Virus record (IMG/VR): IMGVR_UViG_2541047968_000011
DNA: 29,844 nucleotides
Reading direction: 5' to 3' (one strand)
Source: a virus
Lineage: Duplodnaviria > Heunggongvirae > Uroviricota > Caudoviricetes
Positions 1,582 to 7,655 of this stretch are shown in pieces (position 1 is the stretch's first letter; the number at the start of each line of letters is the position of its first letter). The translations under genes were made by a program, and so were the position numbers. The notes below the pieces were generated by a model, which saw only the letters and a list, made by a program, of their open reading frames with translations, made no database searches and was not told the DNA's origin.

Positions 1582-2577
1582 GTGACCGTGAGAGCACTAC
1601 TGACCCCTGAAATCGCCCCGCGTATGGGGATCGTATTGTTCAGGCCAGGTTCAGAGCTGATGCCCCTGTTTATGCAGGGGCGTGTCCTGCTGGAGCCTGA
1701 GCCGGAACGTTATTCATCTTTTGCCAGTGGTGCCGTTCCGGCGGCATCACAACCGCTGGCGGATGATCCTGCCGTTCGGGCCGTGTTCCGCAATGAGGCA
1801 GTGATCCGTCGTGCTGGTGGAGTGGAATGTCTTGAAAGCTGGTTACTTCGTGAAAAAGGCTGCCAATGGCCTCATTCCGACTGGCACAGCGAGAATATGA
1901 CCACAATGCGACACGCGCCGGGCGCAATCCGTCTGTGCTGGCACTGCGATAACCAGCTGCGCGATCAGTTCACGGAACGGCTGGAATCAATGGCAACGGA
2001 TAACTGTGCCCGCTGGGTGTTATCTGTTGTGCGCCGTGATCTCGGTTTTGATGATAGTCACGTTGTAACAATGCCGGAACTGTGCTGGTGGCTGGTTCGT
2101 AATGACCTGGCTGATGCCTTACCGGAAAGTGCAGCCCGTAAGGCACTGAGATTACCTAAGCCTGTTGTGCCGTCTGTCACCCGGGAGAGTGACCTTGTTC
2201 CTTCGGTTCCTGCCACCAGCATTATCCAGGATAAAGCGAAAAAGGTGCTGGCGCTGAAAGTGGATCCAGAGTCGCCGGAGTCTTTTATGTTACGCCCAAA
2301 ATGTCGCCGCTGGGTTAATGAAAAGTACACGCGCTGGGTTAAGACACAGCCGTGTGCATGTTGTGGAAAGCCTGCTGATGATCCCCACCACCTGATAGGC
2401 CACGGTCAGGGTGGAATGGGTACAAAAGCGCATGACCTCTTTGTGTTGCCTTTGTGCAGAAAGCATCACGACGAGCTGCATGCGGATACCGTGGCATTTG
2501 AAGAGAAGTATGGCTCCCAGCTGGAGCTGATATTTCGTTTTATCGATCGTGCGCTGGCAATAGGCGTACTGGCGTAA
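1582..2577 (+). CDS. DUF968-like lambdoid prophage protein with a C-terminal Cys/His (HNH-like) motif
   Basis: 331-aa ORF starting at GTG and overlapping the preceding stop. C-terminus has ...CACCGKPADDPHHLIGHGQGG...CRKHHDELH..., typical of proteins found between rusA/roi and Q in lambdoid prophages. Confidence 0.55.
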   Translation: MTVRALLTPEIAPRMGIVLFRPGSELMPLFMQGRVLLEPEPERYSSFASGAVPAASQPLADDPAVRAVFRNEAVIRRAGGVECLESWLLREKGCQWPHSDWHSENMTTMRHAPGAIRLCWHCDNQLRDQFTERLESMATDNCARWVLSVVRRDLGFDDSHVVTMPELCWWLVRNDLADALPESAARKALRLPKPVVPSVTRESDLVPSVPATSIIQDKAKKVLALKVDPESPESFMLRPKCRRWVNEKYTRWVKTQPCACCGKPADDPHHLIGHGQGGMGTKAHDLFVLPLCRKHHDELHADTVAFEEKYGSQLELIFRFIDRALAIGVLA

Positions 2578-2590
2578 GTGGAGAACGAGC

Positions 2591-3343
2591 ATGAACCTTG
2601 AAGCTTTACCAAAATATTACTCCCCAAAATCTCCAAAATTGAGCGATGACGCACCGGCGACAGGCTTGGGTGGTTTAACAATTACAGATGTGATGGCTGC
2701 GCAGGGGATGGTGCAGTCGAAAGCACCGCTTGGGTTTGCCTTATTCCTGGCAAAAGTTGGTGTTCAGGATCCTCAGTTTGCGATTGAAGGTCTGCTCAAT
2801 TACGCGATGGCACTGGATAACCCGACATTGAACAAATTGAGTGAAGAAACCCGGCTACAGATCATTCCTTACCTTGTGAATTTTGCCTTTGCTGATTATT
2901 CCAGGTCTGCGGCAAGTAAGGCTCGCTGTGAGCGTTGTGCTGGTACTGGATTTCATAATGTATTGCGCGAAGTGGTGAAACACTCCAGAAGCGGGGAGTC
3001 TGTTATCAAGGAAGAGTGGGTGAAGGAACTATGTCAGCATTGTCATGGTAAGGGAGAAGTCAGCACAGCGTGCAGAGGGTGTAAGGGTAAAGGTATTGTC
3101 CTGGATGAAAAAAGAACCCGGCTTCATGGTACGCCTGTTTATAAGATTTGTGGGCGTTGCAATGGAAAACGGTTTAGTCGTTTACCAACCACACTGGCGC
3201 GGCATCATGTCCAGAAACTGGTACCAGACCTGACGGATTATCAGTGGTACAAAGGATATGCAGATGTCATTGATAAACTGGTTACAAAGTGCTGGCAGGA
3301 GGAATCTTACGCTGAAGCACAATTGAGAAAGGTGACAAGATAA
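2591..3343 (+). CDS. Q: Late-gene antitermination protein Q (phage 21/82-type, zinc-finger class)
   Basis: 250 aa with paired Cys clusters (CERCAGTG...CQHCHGKG...CRGCKGKG...CGRCNGK). Sits immediately upstream of the lysis region with GGAG 6 nt before the ATG. Confidence 0.8.
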   Translation: MNLEALPKYYSPKSPKLSDDAPATGLGGLTITDVMAAQGMVQSKAPLGFALFLAKVGVQDPQFAIEGLLNYAMALDNPTLNKLSEETRLQIIPYLVNFAFADYSRSAASKARCERCAGTGFHNVLREVVKHSRSGESVIKEEWVKELCQHCHGKGEVSTACRGCKGKGIVLDEKRTRLHGTPVYKICGRCNGKRFSRLPTTLARHHVQKLVPDLTDYQWYKGYADVIDKLVTKCWQEESYAEAQLRKVTR

Positions 3344-3374
3344 GTGATCTTCGCCGAAAATGGTGACATGATGC

Positions 3375-3403
3375 TTGCAATTTTCAAAAAACATGGATAA
3401 GAT
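3375..3403 (+). promoter_or_regulatory. Putative late promoter (pR'-equivalent): TTGCAA - 17 bp - TAAGAT
   Basis: Sigma70-like hexamers with a 17-bp spacer about 30 bp downstream of the Q stop, where lambdoid phages carry pR'/qut. Not verifiable without tools. Confidence 0.3.
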
Positions 3404-3451
3404 TTTCTCAACGATGGGCTTTATGTATCTGCCGTTGATAACCTTCAAGAA

Positions 3452-3473
3452 CTCGCCATTGAGCGGGTTTTTT
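3452..3473 (+). terminator. Weak intrinsic-terminator-like hairpin plus T6 (tR'-like candidate)
   Basis: A 5-bp stem (ctcgc/gcggg, one G-U pair) with a 6-nt loop followed by TTTTTT, downstream of the putative late promoter. Confidence 0.25.
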
Positions 3474-3545
3474 ATTGTGTAAAAACAGAATGACGGTATT
3501 AATTAGTAATATAATTATTCGACCATACAACTAGGGGTCGAAAAA

Positions 3546-4331
3546 ATGTATGTTTTTGAGTTAATCAAGCCAGGCAGTAATCTTAAGTTTGAAAACAGAG
3601 AGTTAGAATGGACGTTTAATAACTTATTATCCCATTTAGAAACTGCATTTTATGATGCTAATGTAGCATTAAATTTATTCGAACAGGAAAGAACTAAGAA
3701 TAACAGTAAATTCGATAATATTTCTCAGACATGGCAAGCTGATGTACAGAAACGACAAGCACTGGAAATGCTGGTTCGTAAAGAGTTTGGTTATCAACCT
3801 TATGAATATTCAGAACAGGTTTTTTCAGAGGTCGAGCTACGTCTAAAAAGAGAAAAATGGAATAACGGTGAATATCCGTTGGCTCATCAACACAGATTGA
3901 TCTTCTTACATGCAAAATCATTTCTCTACGCTTTGGATGCTATTGATAAATTTTTAAAGGTAATTTCAAAAGAAAATGGCGCGCCAGAGAACATTAAAAA
4001 ATTGCATGAACAGCTTTCTAAAGACTTTCCGGATTTAAGAAAGGTAAGGAATTCAGCTCAACACATGGAAGACAGAGTTCGTGGGCTTGGTGCAGAGAAA
4101 GAACCAAAGCCAATAAAACTCAAACCTGTAAATAATATTCATGTTGTTGCACCTCAGGGGGCATTGATGTTGAATAACTTATTCGGAACTAAATTTGGGT
4201 GCACTATGGCTGATGGCTATTATGGTGAAGTAGATATTTCGACAGAGTCTTTGGCAAAGTTGCAAAATTTAATCCAAAAAGTTTTTAATTCCTTCAGTTG
4301 GGAAGGACCAAAGCAACACCTTCCCCGATAA
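3546..4331 (+). CDS. Hypothetical cargo protein, 261 aa, with an R-x4-H (RNSAQH) HEPN-like motif
   Basis: Long ORF in visibly AT-rich DNA, preceded by a G-rich RBS and followed by a strong terminator. Predicted helical and charged; RNSAQH lies at residues 168-173. It occupies the Q-holin position that carries stx or other morons in lambdoid phages. Confidence 0.7.
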   Translation: MYVFELIKPGSNLKFENRELEWTFNNLLSHLETAFYDANVALNLFEQERTKNNSKFDNISQTWQADVQKRQALEMLVRKEFGYQPYEYSEQVFSEVELRLKREKWNNGEYPLAHQHRLIFLHAKSFLYALDAIDKFLKVISKENGAPENIKKLHEQLSKDFPDLRKVRNSAQHMEDRVRGLGAEKEPKPIKLKPVNNIHVVAPQGALMLNNLFGTKFGCTMADGYYGEVDISTESLAKLQNLIQKVFNSFSWEGPKQHLPR

Positions 4332-4350
4332 CATTTTCTTTTTTATTGAA

Positions 4351-4378
4351 AGCCGCCAAATAATTGGCGGCTTTTTTA
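4351..4378 (+). terminator. Rho-independent terminator
   Basis: Perfect 9-bp stem agccgccaa/ttggcggct with a 4-nt loop, followed by TTTTTT. Confidence 0.75.
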
Positions 4379-4420
4379 TTTCACAGTACCCGCAAATATC
4401 GCGAGGTGAGAGATGACGAA

Positions 4421-4747
4421 ATGCCTCATAACCCAAATACCTGGCTGGACTTGGTCCAGAGCTGGTGGCGTGGAGACACACCGCTGGGCGCAGTGATTAT
4501 GTCGATTGTTATGGCTGGTTTACGTATCGCCTATTTTGGCGGTGGTGGCGGCTGGAAGCGAAAAACACTCGAAATTCTACTCTGTGGCGCTCTGACGCTG
4601 ACTTTTGCATCCGCTCTTGAGTATGTCGGATGGCCTAAATCACTTTCTGTTGCCATTGGTGGTGGGGTGGGGCTGATCGGTGTCGATGCTATTCGTGGGG
4701 CTGCAATGCGAGTAATCGGTAACAAATTTGGTGGCTCTAAGGAGTAA
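4421..4747 (+). CDS. Holin, lambda S-like (class I, three predicted TM segments)
   Basis: Hydrophobic segments and a charged C-terminus with an overall pattern similar to lambda S; lies immediately upstream of the R endolysin. ATG at 4421 is chosen because the longer frame from 4364 would overlap the terminator hairpin. Confidence 0.7.
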   Translation: MPHNPNTWLDLVQSWWRGDTPLGAVIMSIVMAGLRIAYFGGGGGWKRKTLEILLCGALTLTFASALEYVGWPKSLSVAIGGGVGLIGVDAIRGAAMRVIGNKFGGSKE

Positions 4748-4750
4748 TTT

Positions 4751-5227
4751 ATGCAGGTACTAAATTCCCAGCGTAAAGCTTTCCTTGATATGGTGGCATG
4801 GTCAGAAGGAACGGATAACGGGCGACAACCGACACGTAACCACGGTTATGACGTTATTGTTGGTGGTGAACTGTTTACTGATTACTCCGATCATCCTCGC
4901 AAACTTGTCACGCTAAACTCCAAACTCAAATCAACAGCCGCCGGACGTTACCAGCTTCTTTCACGTTGGTGGGATGCTTACCGTAAACAGCTTGGTTTGA
5001 AAGACTTCTCCCCCAAAAGCCAGGACGCTGTGGCATTGCAGCAGATTAAAGAACGTGGCGCTTTACCGATGATTGATCGTGGTGATATTCGTCAGGCTAT
5101 CGACCGTTGCAGCAATATCTGGGCTTCGTTGCCGGGCGCTGGTTACGGTCAGTATGAACATAAAATTGGTGACCTGATTGCCAGGTTTAAAGAGGTTGGC
5201 GGGGTGGTAAATGAAGTTGAGCTATAA
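4751..5227 (+). CDS. R: Endolysin, lambda R-type lytic transglycosylase
   Basis: Near-identity over long stretches to lambda R as recalled (...NSQRKAFLDMVAWSEGTDNGRQPTRNHGYDVIVGGELFTDYSDHPRKLVTLN...). AAGGAG sits 6 nt upstream of the ATG. Confidence 0.93.
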   Translation: MQVLNSQRKAFLDMVAWSEGTDNGRQPTRNHGYDVIVGGELFTDYSDHPRKLVTLNSKLKSTAAGRYQLLSRWWDAYRKQLGLKDFSPKSQDAVALQQIKERGALPMIDRGDIRQAIDRCSNIWASLPGAGYGQYEHKIGDLIARFKEVGGVVNEVEL

Positions 5228-5672
5228 GCTAGTTATCGCTGCTTTCTTCGTTACTATTATTGGTTCTTTCATCTGGTCAGCGAATCATTACCACAATCAA
5301 GCCATTGAATACAAAAAGCAGCGCGACGAAAACGCTATGGCATTACATTCGGCTATGGCGACGATCTCTGATATGCAGAAGCGTCAACGTGACGTAGCTG
5401 AACTTGACGCCAGATACACAAAGGAGCTTGCTGATGCTAACACGACTCTCGAAAGTCTCCGTACTGATGTCTCTGCTGGTCGTAAGCGCTTGCAAATCGC
5501 CGCCACCTGTGCAAAGTCAACGACCGGAGCCAGCGGCATGGGCTATGGAGAAAGTCCAAGACTTACAGCTGATGCTGAACTCAATTATTACCGCCTCCGA
5601 AGTGGGATCGACAAGATAACTGCACAGGTTAACTACTTGCAGGAGTACATCAAGACACAGTGCCAGAAATGA
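5211..5672 (+). CDS. Rz: Spanin inner-membrane subunit Rz (i-spanin)
   Basis: N-terminal TM segment followed by coiled-coil, with lambda Rz-like stretches (...QRDVAELDARYTKELADA...). Start overlaps the end of R. Confidence 0.85.
   Translation: MKLSYKLVIAAFFVTIIGSFIWSANHYHNQAIEYKKQRDENAMALHSAMATISDMQKRQRDVAELDARYTKELADANTTLESLRTDVSAGRKRLQIAATCAKSTTGASGMGYGESPRLTADAELNYYRLRSGIDKITAQVNYLQEYIKTQCQK
5434..5619 (+). CDS. Rz1: Spanin outer-membrane lipoprotein subunit Rz1 (o-spanin), embedded in the +1 frame of Rz
   Basis: Embedded ORF with a lipoprotein signal and lipobox (MLTRLSKVSVLMSLLVVSAC) followed by a Pro-rich mature region, as in lambda Rz1. Confidence 0.75.
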   Translation: MLTRLSKVSVLMSLLVVSACKSPPPVQSQRPEPAAWAMEKVQDLQLMLNSIITASEVGSTR

Positions 5673-5744
5673 ATCTATAGATGACACTCCTCGTTCGTAT
5701 AAGATAATGCTAAATTACTATTAGCTTAATCACAGGAGACGGAC

Positions 5745-6608
5745 ATGGAAAGAGGTGTGGTATTTAGTGCATGCGAATTACTTAAAACCGAGGATGGAAA
5801 AGGCATCCGTACAGGTAAATGGATTAGTCAATTAGAAATAAACTATCTATGTCTTTATTGGGATAAACTAGTTTCACCCACTAATAATATTATACATACA
5901 GCATTAAATAACGAGGATGAATTAGAAAAATGTGGATTGCTAACCAGACCTGTATATAGACATCATGGTTGTTTTGATGGCCAATATATGGCTGATTTTT
6001 ATGCTGAAACTCATGCCAAAACAATAGATATACTTAGGCATGCGGATTCTTCTGTCGATTGGCGCATGCATTTTTTAAGTGACCAAATAAACTTGGTGCC
6101 TGAATTATCTAGAACCTCAGAAGTGATACGTTTTGAGCTAGCAAATTTATTACCCGTTCCCACAGAAGATGTGCACCTACATGATATTCTTGATTTCAAG
6201 GAAAGAAGAAAACCTGAATTAATCGCTTTACATGAATATCTTGATGAGCTTTACTTGGAAATAAAACGTTCTGGTGATATCAATCTTCAGAAAGCAAAAG
6301 CTCTTTCTAATCTTAAACAAGCAATAAAGGATATTGAACGCTTAAATTGTGAAGTGTGGAAAAGTCCAATAAAATTTAGCATCTCTACTTCCTTTGAGTT
6401 CGATTTTTCACAAATATTTACTCTGGCGGGAACTGTTTTATCTATGTCAGTAGATTATCCTTATAATGTTATTGGAGGGGTAAGTAGTTTTGCTTATTTT
6501 TTGGGAGGATGCATAAAAATAAAGCCACAATTTCAACAAGTGTTATCATTAGGTAATGATAAATTAGTTTACATAAGCAAAGGAAAATCGGAGGGTATTA
6601 TTTCCTGA
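5745..6608 (+). CDS. Hypothetical cargo protein, 287 aa, no recognised family
   Basis: Long ORF in AT-rich DNA with AGGAG 9 nt upstream of the ATG. It sits between the lysis cassette and the HNH/terminase genes. Confidence 0.65.
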   Translation: MERGVVFSACELLKTEDGKGIRTGKWISQLEINYLCLYWDKLVSPTNNIIHTALNNEDELEKCGLLTRPVYRHHGCFDGQYMADFYAETHAKTIDILRHADSSVDWRMHFLSDQINLVPELSRTSEVIRFELANLLPVPTEDVHLHDILDFKERRKPELIALHEYLDELYLEIKRSGDINLQKAKALSNLKQAIKDIERLNCEVWKSPIKFSISTSFEFDFSQIFTLAGTVLSMSVDYPYNVIGGVSSFAYFLGGCIKIKPQFQQVLSLGNDKLVYISKGKSEGIIS

Positions 6609-6684
6609 TTTTTGATTCTCATAATCAATGAATGTTTTTTGTGAATATACTTATTTTAACCATATAAATAATCAAGGTAATAAA

Positions 6685-7035
6685 GTGCCTCCTCGTATCC
6701 CGAAAGCCTGCCGTGCTCGAGGTTGCCGTAATACCACCACAGACCCGTCAGGCTACTGCGAAAGCCACAAAAGCGAAGGCTGGAAGCAATACAAGCCAGG
6801 CCAGTCCCGACACCAGCGCGGTTATGGTGCGAAATGGGATTTTATCCGTGAACGTGTGCTCAAGCGTGACAAAGGCCTGTGTCAGTTGTGTTTGCGTGCC
6901 GGTGTGGTGCGCGAGGCGAAAACCGTTGACCACATCATCCCTAAAGCACATGGCGGCACTGATGCCGACAGTAATCTGCAGAGTCTGTGCTGGCCGTGTC
7001 ATAAGGCGAAGACGGCCCGTGAACGGTTGAAGTAA
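6685..7035 (+). CDS. HNH endonuclease (terminase-associated)
   Basis: Cys/His-rich motifs (...CRARGC...C..H...DHIIPKAHGGTD...N...CWPCH) and position directly upstream of terS. GTG at 6685 is preferred over the AT-rich extension from 6628. Confidence 0.78.
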   Translation: MPPRIPKACRARGCRNTTTDPSGYCESHKSEGWKQYKPGQSRHQRGYGAKWDFIRERVLKRDKGLCQLCLRAGVVREAKTVDHIIPKAHGGTDADSNLQSLCWPCHKAKTARERLK

Positions 7036-7061
7036 GAACCAGTTCCCACTGCCAGAGGGGA

Positions 7062-7120
7062 GGGGCGGGTCAAATCCCTGTGACCTGACGTCTTCCGGAC
7101 TGCCCGCCCCATCGTTTTTT
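7062..7120 (+). other. GC-rich inverted repeat (ggggcggg ... cccgcccc) followed by T7; terminator or cos-associated structure
   Basis: 8-bp GC stem arms separated by about 33 nt, then TTTTTTT, in the HNH/terS intergenic region where HK97-like phages place cos. Confidence 0.3.
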
Positions 7121-7160
7121 TATACCCGCGAAAAATGAAATTTAACCAGGAGTGCCGCAT

Positions 7161-7655
7161 ATGGCTGGAACGGCGGGGCGTTCCGGGCGTCGCCCCAAGC
7201 CAACGGCGCGCAAGGCGCTGGCCGGAAACCCCGGCAAGCGAGCCCTGAATAAAGATGAACCTGTTTTTACGCCCATCAAAGGTGTTGAGCCACCGGAGTG
7301 GTTCGCTGAAGAAGATCTCCCTCTCGCCACGATCATGTGGCAATTGACAACTAAAGAACTTTGCGGTCAGGGCTTGCTGTGCGTGACTGACCTCGCGGTG
7401 CTTGAGCGGTGGTGTGTGGCCTATGAGTTCTGGCGACGTGCCGTGAAAAATATTGCCAGACAGGGCAACACCATCACCGGTGCAATGGGCGGTATGGTCA
7501 AAAATCCTGAGCTGACCGCCAAAAAAGAACAGGAGTCCGAGATGAGCAGCACGGGGGCAATGCTCGGACTCGACCCCAGCAGCCGCCAGCGTCTGATTGG
7601 CCTGGCGGGGCAGAAGAAAGCTATTAACCCGTTTCTGAAAATCATCGAATCATGA
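7161..7655 (+). CDS. Terminase small subunit (P27-family-like)
   Basis: N-terminus [27 protein letters not shown] is typical of P27-type TerS. AGGAG sits 8 nt upstream of the ATG at 7161, and the gene is followed by terL. Confidence 0.82.

Follow-up and report, generated by a model that had tools for sequence, protein, structure and literature searches.

We find that the region immediately 3′ of the Q antiterminator gene in the virus record IMGVR_UViG_2541047968_000011 (Caudoviricetes; 29,844 nucleotides (nt), hereafter the window) is best described as a lambda-type Q-dependent late cassette, in which Q is followed by a late promoter (pR′) carrying a candidate Q-binding site in its spacer, by a pause element and by a terminator (tR′), and in which a moron, hereafter cargo gene A, has been inserted directly after tR′ and before the lysis genes (a reading to which we assign a probability of roughly 0.75). 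Morons are extra genes with a promoter and terminator of their own and a deviant composition (PMC8065619, PMC6266700). The placement of cargo gene A within the Q-dependent late unit is supported by the arrangement of the sequence and by analogy with lambda and with Shiga toxin (Stx) phages; the slot that it occupies is the same one that holds the Shiga toxin genes in related phages. The Q/pR′/tR′–cargo–lysis layout is textbook and, as a regulatory finding, ordinary; what is new is confined to the cargo family, for which no annotation exists and which is both widespread and mobile.

The window begins in the last part of a lambdoid prophage's early-right region, with RusA followed by KilA-N and DUF968 proteins and then Q, and a 202-nt intergenic stretch separates Q from cargo gene A, which is succeeded in turn by holin, endolysin, and Rz genes. 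The Q protein matches PF03589 (E = 1e-53, 179.9 bits, cut-off 26.7) and the PHROGs family phrog_127 (“anti-termination protein Q-like”); among PDB entries lambda Q (7UBM) scores best, at E = 1.8e-37, with residues 1–120 and 160–250 aligned, and the DNA of the gene is 95% identical to that of the Q genes of SfV, mEp460, Ayreon, and Stx2c phages. Q is, by these matches, a member of the lambda Q family; assignment to the phage-21 type, which the sharing of this Q with Stx2c phages might suggest, is ruled out by the PF03589 and 7UBM matches. Relative to the lambda protein (207 residues), the Q of the window (250 residues) is 43 residues longer, with an insertion of ~40 residues that adds two CxxC pairs to the zinc-ribbon “arm”, which suggests a doubled zinc-ribbon arm where lambda has a single zinc site. 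In the stretch of residues ~113–190, the part that does not align to lambda Q (121–159) holds one of the four CxxC pairs (eight cysteines in total), and there is a weak match to DnaJ_CXXCXGXG.

A first-pass annotation, made from the letters of the window alone, had proposed a promoter of the form TTGCAA-17-TAAGAT at 3375–3403. The two hexamers are present exactly there, starting 32 nt 3′ of the Q stop codon, with the spacer at 3381–3397. Comparison with lambda pR′ (TTGACT-17-TAAATT-tgactc-AACGATGGG in lambda, TTGCAA-17-TAAGAT-tttctc-AACGATGGG in the window) reveals that both promoters stand directly after Q and share the 17-nt spacer length, the 6-nt discriminator, and an identical nine-base pause element, AACGATGGG. 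The string TAAGAT-N6-AACGAT has a single occurrence in the whole window. By analogy with lambda, we take the start of transcription to lie near 3410 and the pause near 3425–3426. A short inverted repeat also occupies 3350–3367, after the end of Q and ahead of the −35 hexamer (TCGCC-N-GGTGA in the window, TCGCC...GGCGA in relatives); its lambda counterpart (~718–735 of the lambda stretch) reads TTGCCA-CGGA-TGGCAA, and no T run follows the repeat.

Conservation of these elements was measured as the column-wise majority frequency over an alignment of 15 phages of the shared Q type, including SfV, mEp460, Ayreon, Stx1, Stx2c, and Stx2k phages, Tritos, 2H10, and F1055. The −35 hexamer and the pause element both reach 0.99, the spacer 0.97, and the −10 hexamer 0.93, with lower values in the discriminator (0.82) and the leader (0.83); in the 28 columns after the T tract of the terminator the value is 0.56, and none of the 28 is invariant. 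Within the −35 the other phages of the set carry TTGCAT where the window has TTGCAA, and the −10 of relatives reads TAAGAT, TAAAAT, TAATAT, or TAGGAT. We identify the promoter as pR′ because a lambda-family Q lies upstream of it, because the pause element sits at the lambda spacing, and because the block is conserved in the 15 phages.

The lambda Q-utilization site lies partly between the −35 and −10 hexamers (PMC6266700), and the Q-binding element (QBE) is a 13-bp asymmetric site (PMC9388147; the role of the sigma-dependent pause element, the definition of the Q cassette, and processive read-through by Q are described in the same work). Since the spacer of the window is nearly invariant and lambda Q binds partly there, we regard positions 3381–3397 as a candidate QBE of this Q subtype, a proposal that draws on conservation only. 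The combination of AACGATGGG with the invariant spacer provides a simple signature by which to locate pR′ behind a common Q subtype.

The weak hairpin with six T residues that had been noted at 3452–3473 is likewise found, with a core stem running from C3452 to G3467 (one G·U pair, 6-nt loop at 3457–3462) and the T residues at 3468–3473; the terminator scan lists it at 3447–3472, and it folds at −11.0 kcal/mol (z = −2.1). A hairpin and T run occupy the tR′ position in all 15 of the aligned phages, in at least three stem versions: CCCGCC/GCGGG in the SfV group (−14.1 kcal/mol), a longer one in the Tritos group (−21 to −24 kcal/mol), and a further one with a TTCG loop in SKA5 and sal3 (CCTCGC-TTCG-GCGGGG, −13.1 kcal/mol). 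The form in the window is slightly weaker than that of the SfV group, a C-to-T change having produced the G·U pair (−11.0 vs −14.1 kcal/mol). In the records of SfV and Ayreon, a terminator is annotated at the corresponding position. Judged by position and conservation, then, what had been read as a “weak hairpin” is the tR′ conserved in phages of this Q type, and the pR′/tR′-like arrangement that had been suspected after Q is backed by the lambda-family Q, by the homology to lambda pR′, and by the retention of the hairpin in the 15 phages. A first-pass reading of raw sequence was able to recognize a late promoter and terminator pair.

Without Q, tR′ would release a short RNA of ~64 nt (3410–3473), whereas the lambda tR′ hairpin lies ~190 nt past the start. 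This leader would be a constitutive short RNA in lysogens. The short pR′–tR′ RNA of Stx phages has been reported as a regulatory small RNA (PMC8065619). An Rfam scan of 2400–7200 (E up to 1) returned sub-threshold matches only, all from the cargo terminator, and no leader RNA family. We also observe a near-identical small terminator (AACCCGC-N5-6-GCGGG plus T run) behind Q genes of three unrelated families; the type found at 3450–3473 recurs upstream in loci L023, L026, L089, L090, L093, and L097 and at L001 4037–4060, and occurs twice in Ayreon. This small terminator may act as a shared junction for the exchange of cargo modules.

Homology of the window to related phages such as SfV stops with the final T of the tR′ tract (3473), and homology with SfV resumes at 4369, within the 3′ arm of a second, strong terminator just before its T run. 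Among evenly sampled partial matches in Escherichia coli prophages, the left end falls exactly at 3473 in 25/59 and within 3469–3479 in 39/59, while the right-hand breakpoints are more scattered (4369, 4397–4401, 4457–4463). Behind the shared Q/pR′/tR′ module the slot is filled by stx1 in Lys8385Vzw, by stx2k with tRNA genes in phiSTEC1575, by a DNA methylase in SfV, mEp460, and Ayreon, by cold-shock (csp) genes in Tritos, 2H10, and PhiR42_1, and by unnamed genes in F1055, SKA5, and sal3. Fifteen phages named as Stx2c-converting carry the module as well (in the one record of these that was read the slot is unannotated, and stx2c downstream was not directly seen). Direct observation covers the sequence elements and how well they are conserved, the homology to lambda pR′, the limits of the module, and the fact that the cargo varies.

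The Q/pR′/tR′ modules of the Stx1 (Lys8385Vzw), Stx2c, and Stx2k phages are ~95% identical to that of the window, and stx genes in this slot are governed by pR′ and Q, with a constitutive short pR′–tR′ RNA in lysogens (PMC8065619, PMC6266700). Slot and strand are identical in the window and the same Q dependence would be expected after induction; the cargo, in contrast, is unrelated to the toxin, lacks accompanying tRNA genes, and consists of one gene that ends in a strong terminator of its own. Where Stx phages place Shiga toxin genes under this module, the window would place an uncharacterized gene, and the product of cargo gene A would therefore be expected in a burst on prophage induction.

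Cargo gene A is rare relative to the module that hosts it. A query running from Q to the start of the endolysin gene (2591–4800) matches 3020 of 5426 complete E. coli genomes, and cargo gene A is present in 23 of the 5426. One of these 23 copies (NZ_AP045816.1) matches in two pieces, with a transposase of the ISKpn26 family (IS5-like) annotated under the match. A tblastn search of 50,697 phage records with cargo A returned just two weak partial matches, both in Marinitoga viruses; cargo A is absent from the sequenced isolated phages of the group to which the window belongs.

By composition and distribution cargo gene A looks like a typical moron. Its module has a G+C content (GC) of 0.30–0.39 against 0.46–0.54 in the flanks, and the gene is missing from SfV, mEp460, Ayreon, and the Stx phages, where the slot holds something else; we thus find both a deviant composition and a patchy presence at a module junction (breakpoints 3473 and 4369). 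It shares with lambdoid morons its presence in a minority of near-identical prophages, low GC, an exact inter-module insertion, a terminator of its own, and a conserved −10; it differs in that its promoter is putative and without a −35, and in that the family also resides on plasmids, with some copies bearing attC-like flanks (the latter atypical of described morons).

The first-pass annotation had allowed for expression of cargo gene A from its own promoter in the lysogen. A perfect −10 hexamer, TATAAT, lies at 3510–3515, 30 nt before the cargo A ATG, and GTAATATAATT or a one-mismatch variant of it recurs upstream of the ATG at homologue loci in Citrobacter, Leclercia, Kosakonia, Enterobacter, and Klebsiella. 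The proteins encoded at the loci that share the GTAATATAATT block are just 51–67% identical, and in 7 of 10 homologue loci precisely 30 nt lie between the end of the −10 and the ATG. The conserved TATAAT, a candidate promoter of the cargo gene itself, and the module's own terminator fit the proposal; the −35 does not, no convincing one being present upstream.

The module is closed by the strong intrinsic terminator that had been placed, within a few positions, at 4351–4378 ahead of the holin gene. It comprises a 12-bp GC-rich stem at 4348–4375 with a 4-nt loop, followed by a T run (T6) to 4377, and folds at −18.7 kcal/mol (z = −5.8; 0/200 shuffles fold as well); its end is 44 nt from the holin ATG. 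The SfV stem at this position is different (GGCCACG/CGTGGCC), and since SfV homology resumes only at 4369, the stem belongs to the cargo and the T tract onward to the holin leader. In each enterobacterial or Acinetobacter homologue locus for which the sequence past the stop codon was inspected, a GC-rich hairpin and T run follow closely, as judged by eye.

On the far side of this terminator, the lysis genes are identified by Pfam matches (PF05106, E = 2e-25; PF03245, E = 8e-39), and the holin start codon corresponds to the annotated S start of SfV. The promoter scan found no promoter-like site between 4378 and 4420, and transcription of the lysis genes would therefore have to cross cargo gene A and both terminators. 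The window and lambda have in common a lambda-family Q, an intrinsic terminator in the leader, and downstream lysis genes of the S, R, and Rz types; they differ in the 0.9-kb gene module that separates tR′ from the holin in the window. An in-frame GTG lies five codons upstream of the holin ATG (4406–4423; GTG-R-D-D-E-ATG). This upstream GTG could yield a longer holin or an antiholin form, like the two starts of lambda S.

We envisage the following sequence of events. In the lysogen, pR′ would fire, RNA polymerase would pause at AACGAT and then terminate at tR′; cargo gene A would be transcribed, if at all, from its own TATAAT promoter or by leakage through the slightly weakened tR′, and such transcripts would be stopped at the strong terminator, keeping the holin silent. 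After induction, Q would bind the spacer element and load onto the paused polymerase, rendering it terminator-resistant, such that the late transcript would cross tR′, cargo gene A, and the cargo terminator into the holin, endolysin, Rz, and structural genes. Promoter activity, pausing, Q loading, and read-through are inferred here from knowledge of lambda and of Stx phages.

Several points weigh against this reading. All of its functional steps rest on analogy, and the inducibility of the prophage is assumed. The sequence of the spacer differs from that of lambda, with Q binding there a guess from conservation, and the −35-like TTGACT, which contacts sigma region 4 in lambda, is degenerate in the window (TTTTCT). 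The absence of a convincing −35 upstream of the cargo TATAAT counts on the same side. Finally, the pR′ candidate agrees with the consensus at 8/12 positions and was not called by the promoter scanner (cut-off 9/12). The case for a promoter at this position is a comparative one, as its consensus score alone is not significant.

This last point admits the explanation that TTGCAA-17-TAAGAT is a chance match in AT-rich DNA and that the true late promoter lies elsewhere, for example at GTGACA-18-GAAAAT (3332–3361), which the scanner lists at 9/12 while omitting 3375–3403; promoter-like sites are, moreover, not enriched in the region (5 found vs 9.7 expected). We find this scarcely credible. The GTGACA falls within the last codons of Q, its paired hexamer is GAAGAT in most relatives, and no pause-like element follows 3332–3361, whereas the nearly invariant block at 3375–3418 matches lambda pR′, AACGATGGG included. 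The site at 3332–3361 was rejected as an alternative promoter, being in coding sequence, unconserved as a promoter, and without a pause element. A different objection accepts the Q-dependent transcript and concerns the nature of the cargo: cargo gene A might be, rather than a lysogenic-conversion moron, a gene of lytic growth (acting, for example, in lysis timing, anti-defense, or exclusion) that depends mainly on Q, its location at the start of the late operon being purposeful and the TATAAT incidental. The constancy of its position speaks for this, as at all 12 enterobacterial homologue loci examined the gene lies between Q and holin, whichever of three Q families (plus the DUF1133 type) or four holin families adjoins it. 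We nonetheless consider the proposal unlikely, given that homologues occur outside phages (on Acinetobacter Rep3 plasmids, in an integrase/transposase/NERD neighborhood, and with attC-like flanks), that cargo gene A has a conserved −10 and its own terminator, and that it is dispensable, viable phages of the same Q existing without it.

The remaining alternative separates transcription from translation. An inverted repeat (TTCGACC at 3519–3525, GGTCGAA at 3537–3543) encloses the cargo A Shine–Dalgarno sequence, AGGGG (3532–3536), and its arms differ among homologue loci yet stay complementary (TGTCTG/CAGACA, TGTTTG/CAAACA, GTTCG-C/GCGAAC; matching repeats at L023 5972–6000, L026 3972–4000, and L089 2972–3000). 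Over seven loci, 75.5% of cells pair against 31–45% in slid controls, with three pairs changed on both sides; 13/500 shuffles reach the observed covariation score. Co-transcription with the late genes is accordingly no guarantee that cargo gene A is co-translated with them. As the 5′ arm falls downstream of the cargo −10 and ahead of the predicted start, mRNA from the cargo promoter would lack this arm and only read-through transcripts would hold it. Cargo gene A could then be co-transcribed with the late genes and not co-translated, the hairpin over its ribosome-binding site forming only on read-through RNA, such that the protein would be lysogen-specific and shielded from the late burst. Fold-back inhibition shields the IS10 transposase from outside transcription, and the arrangement proposed here would resemble it. 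Beyond the covariation of the arms, the 5′ arm starts 0–4 nt after the cargo −10 in homologue loci, and the predicted accessibility of the ribosome-binding site in most relatives is 0.18–0.37 on the long transcript vs 0.45–0.56 on the short. In the window itself, however, these values barely differ (0.43 vs 0.47), two of the seven loci (L093 and L095) lack the hairpin, the covariation is weak (just seven related sequences), the cargo transcription start is a prediction, and the hairpin is modest (centroid energy about −7 kcal/mol); we judge the proposal quite improbable, and retain the Q-dependent late cassette carrying a moron as the preferred description.

The genomic contexts of the cargo family extend well beyond the slot in the window. 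In the 12 enterobacterial loci noted above, the gene lies on the same strand as its neighbors, behind Q genes of the lambda (PF03589), phage 82 (PF06323), or phage 21/DUF1133 (PF06530/PF06576) type. Small Rep3 plasmids carry the Acinetobacter homologues, which immediately follow an Abi_2 (AbiD/F-type) gene (L020 2422–5346, L021 2149–4373) and adjoin RelE/HTH toxin–antitoxin pairs, a defense-island-like neighborhood; elsewhere outside the enterobacteria the gene adjoins integrase fragments, a transposase, and a NERD nuclease, and in several loci attC-like inverted repeats (RYYYAAC...GTTRRRY) bracket it in the manner of integron cassettes. From these mobile contexts, together with the Q–holin placement, we therefore describe the cargo gene as mobile and autonomous, and as having been captured repeatedly in a single slot in lambdoid prophages.

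Cargo A has no match in Pfam, NCBIfam, or PADLOC, and in PHROGs matches an unnamed family only. An alignment of 40 sequences reveals invariant R168, N169, and H173, followed by a nearly invariant E-D and an invariant R177, and the motif R168-N-S-A-Q-H173 has the HEPN Rx4-6H form. In tests for HEPN membership, cargo A gave no Pfam match even at E up to 10, its profile gave no PDB sequence match, and an hhalign comparison with the neighboring Abi_2 protein gave nothing; in the structure model, the RNxxxH motif sits in a low-confidence segment (predicted local distance difference test (pLDDT) score of 50–70). Filing cargo A as HEPN was rejected, the motif being present and neither profile nor fold evidence supporting membership. 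Its fixed position and its contexts make cargo gene A a reasonable candidate for a defense or exclusion gene. A more specific picture, which we offer as highly speculative, would have cargo A represent an undescribed family of single-gene, possibly HEPN-like host-protection or phage-exclusion proteins that move among some integron-like arrays, plasmids, and the enterobacterial late-operon slot that follows three unrelated Q families, with the fold-back hairpin permitting translation of mRNA from the cargo promoter in the lysogen and muting the late transcript.

Table. Features of the Q–holin region of the window, with coordinates, strand, and basis of assignment.
Feature	Position	Strand	Basis
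Q antiterminator gene, 250 aa	2591..3343	+	PF03589, PDB 7UBM, phrog_127
pR′ −35 hexamer TTGCAA	3375..3380	+	direct reading; majority frequency 0.99 in 15 phages
promoter spacer TTTTCAAAAAACATGGA, candidate QBE	3381..3397	+	13/17 columns invariant in 15 phages
pR′ −10 hexamer TAAGAT	3398..3403	+	direct reading
sigma-dependent pause element, AACGAT then GGG (putative)	3410..3418	+	identity and spacing as in lambda pR′
tR′-like intrinsic terminator	3447..3473	+	terminator scan, folding, hairpin kept in 15 phages
cargo module (moron)	3474..4368	+	terminator T tracts at both ends; low GC; absent from relatives
candidate cargo −10 TATAAT	3510..3515	+	conserved upstream of ATG in homologue loci
inverted repeat around cargo A Shine–Dalgarno	3519..3543	+	covarying arms
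cargo gene A, 261 aa	3546..4331	+	invariant motif V-R168-N-x3-H173-x-E-D-R
strong intrinsic terminator of cargo module	4348..4377	+	scan and folding
holin (lambda S family), first lysis-cassette gene	4421..4747	+	PF05106; start matches annotated S start in SfV
endolysin gene	4751..5227		
Rz gene	5211..5672		

A second AT-rich insertion follows Rz (5681–6608, GC 0.29–0.39) and encodes a 287-residue DUF6236 protein (phrog_23128). The strongest promoter-like site in the region (ATGACA-16-GATAAT, 5681–5708, 10/12) lies ahead of this gene, and the insertion looks like a second moron.

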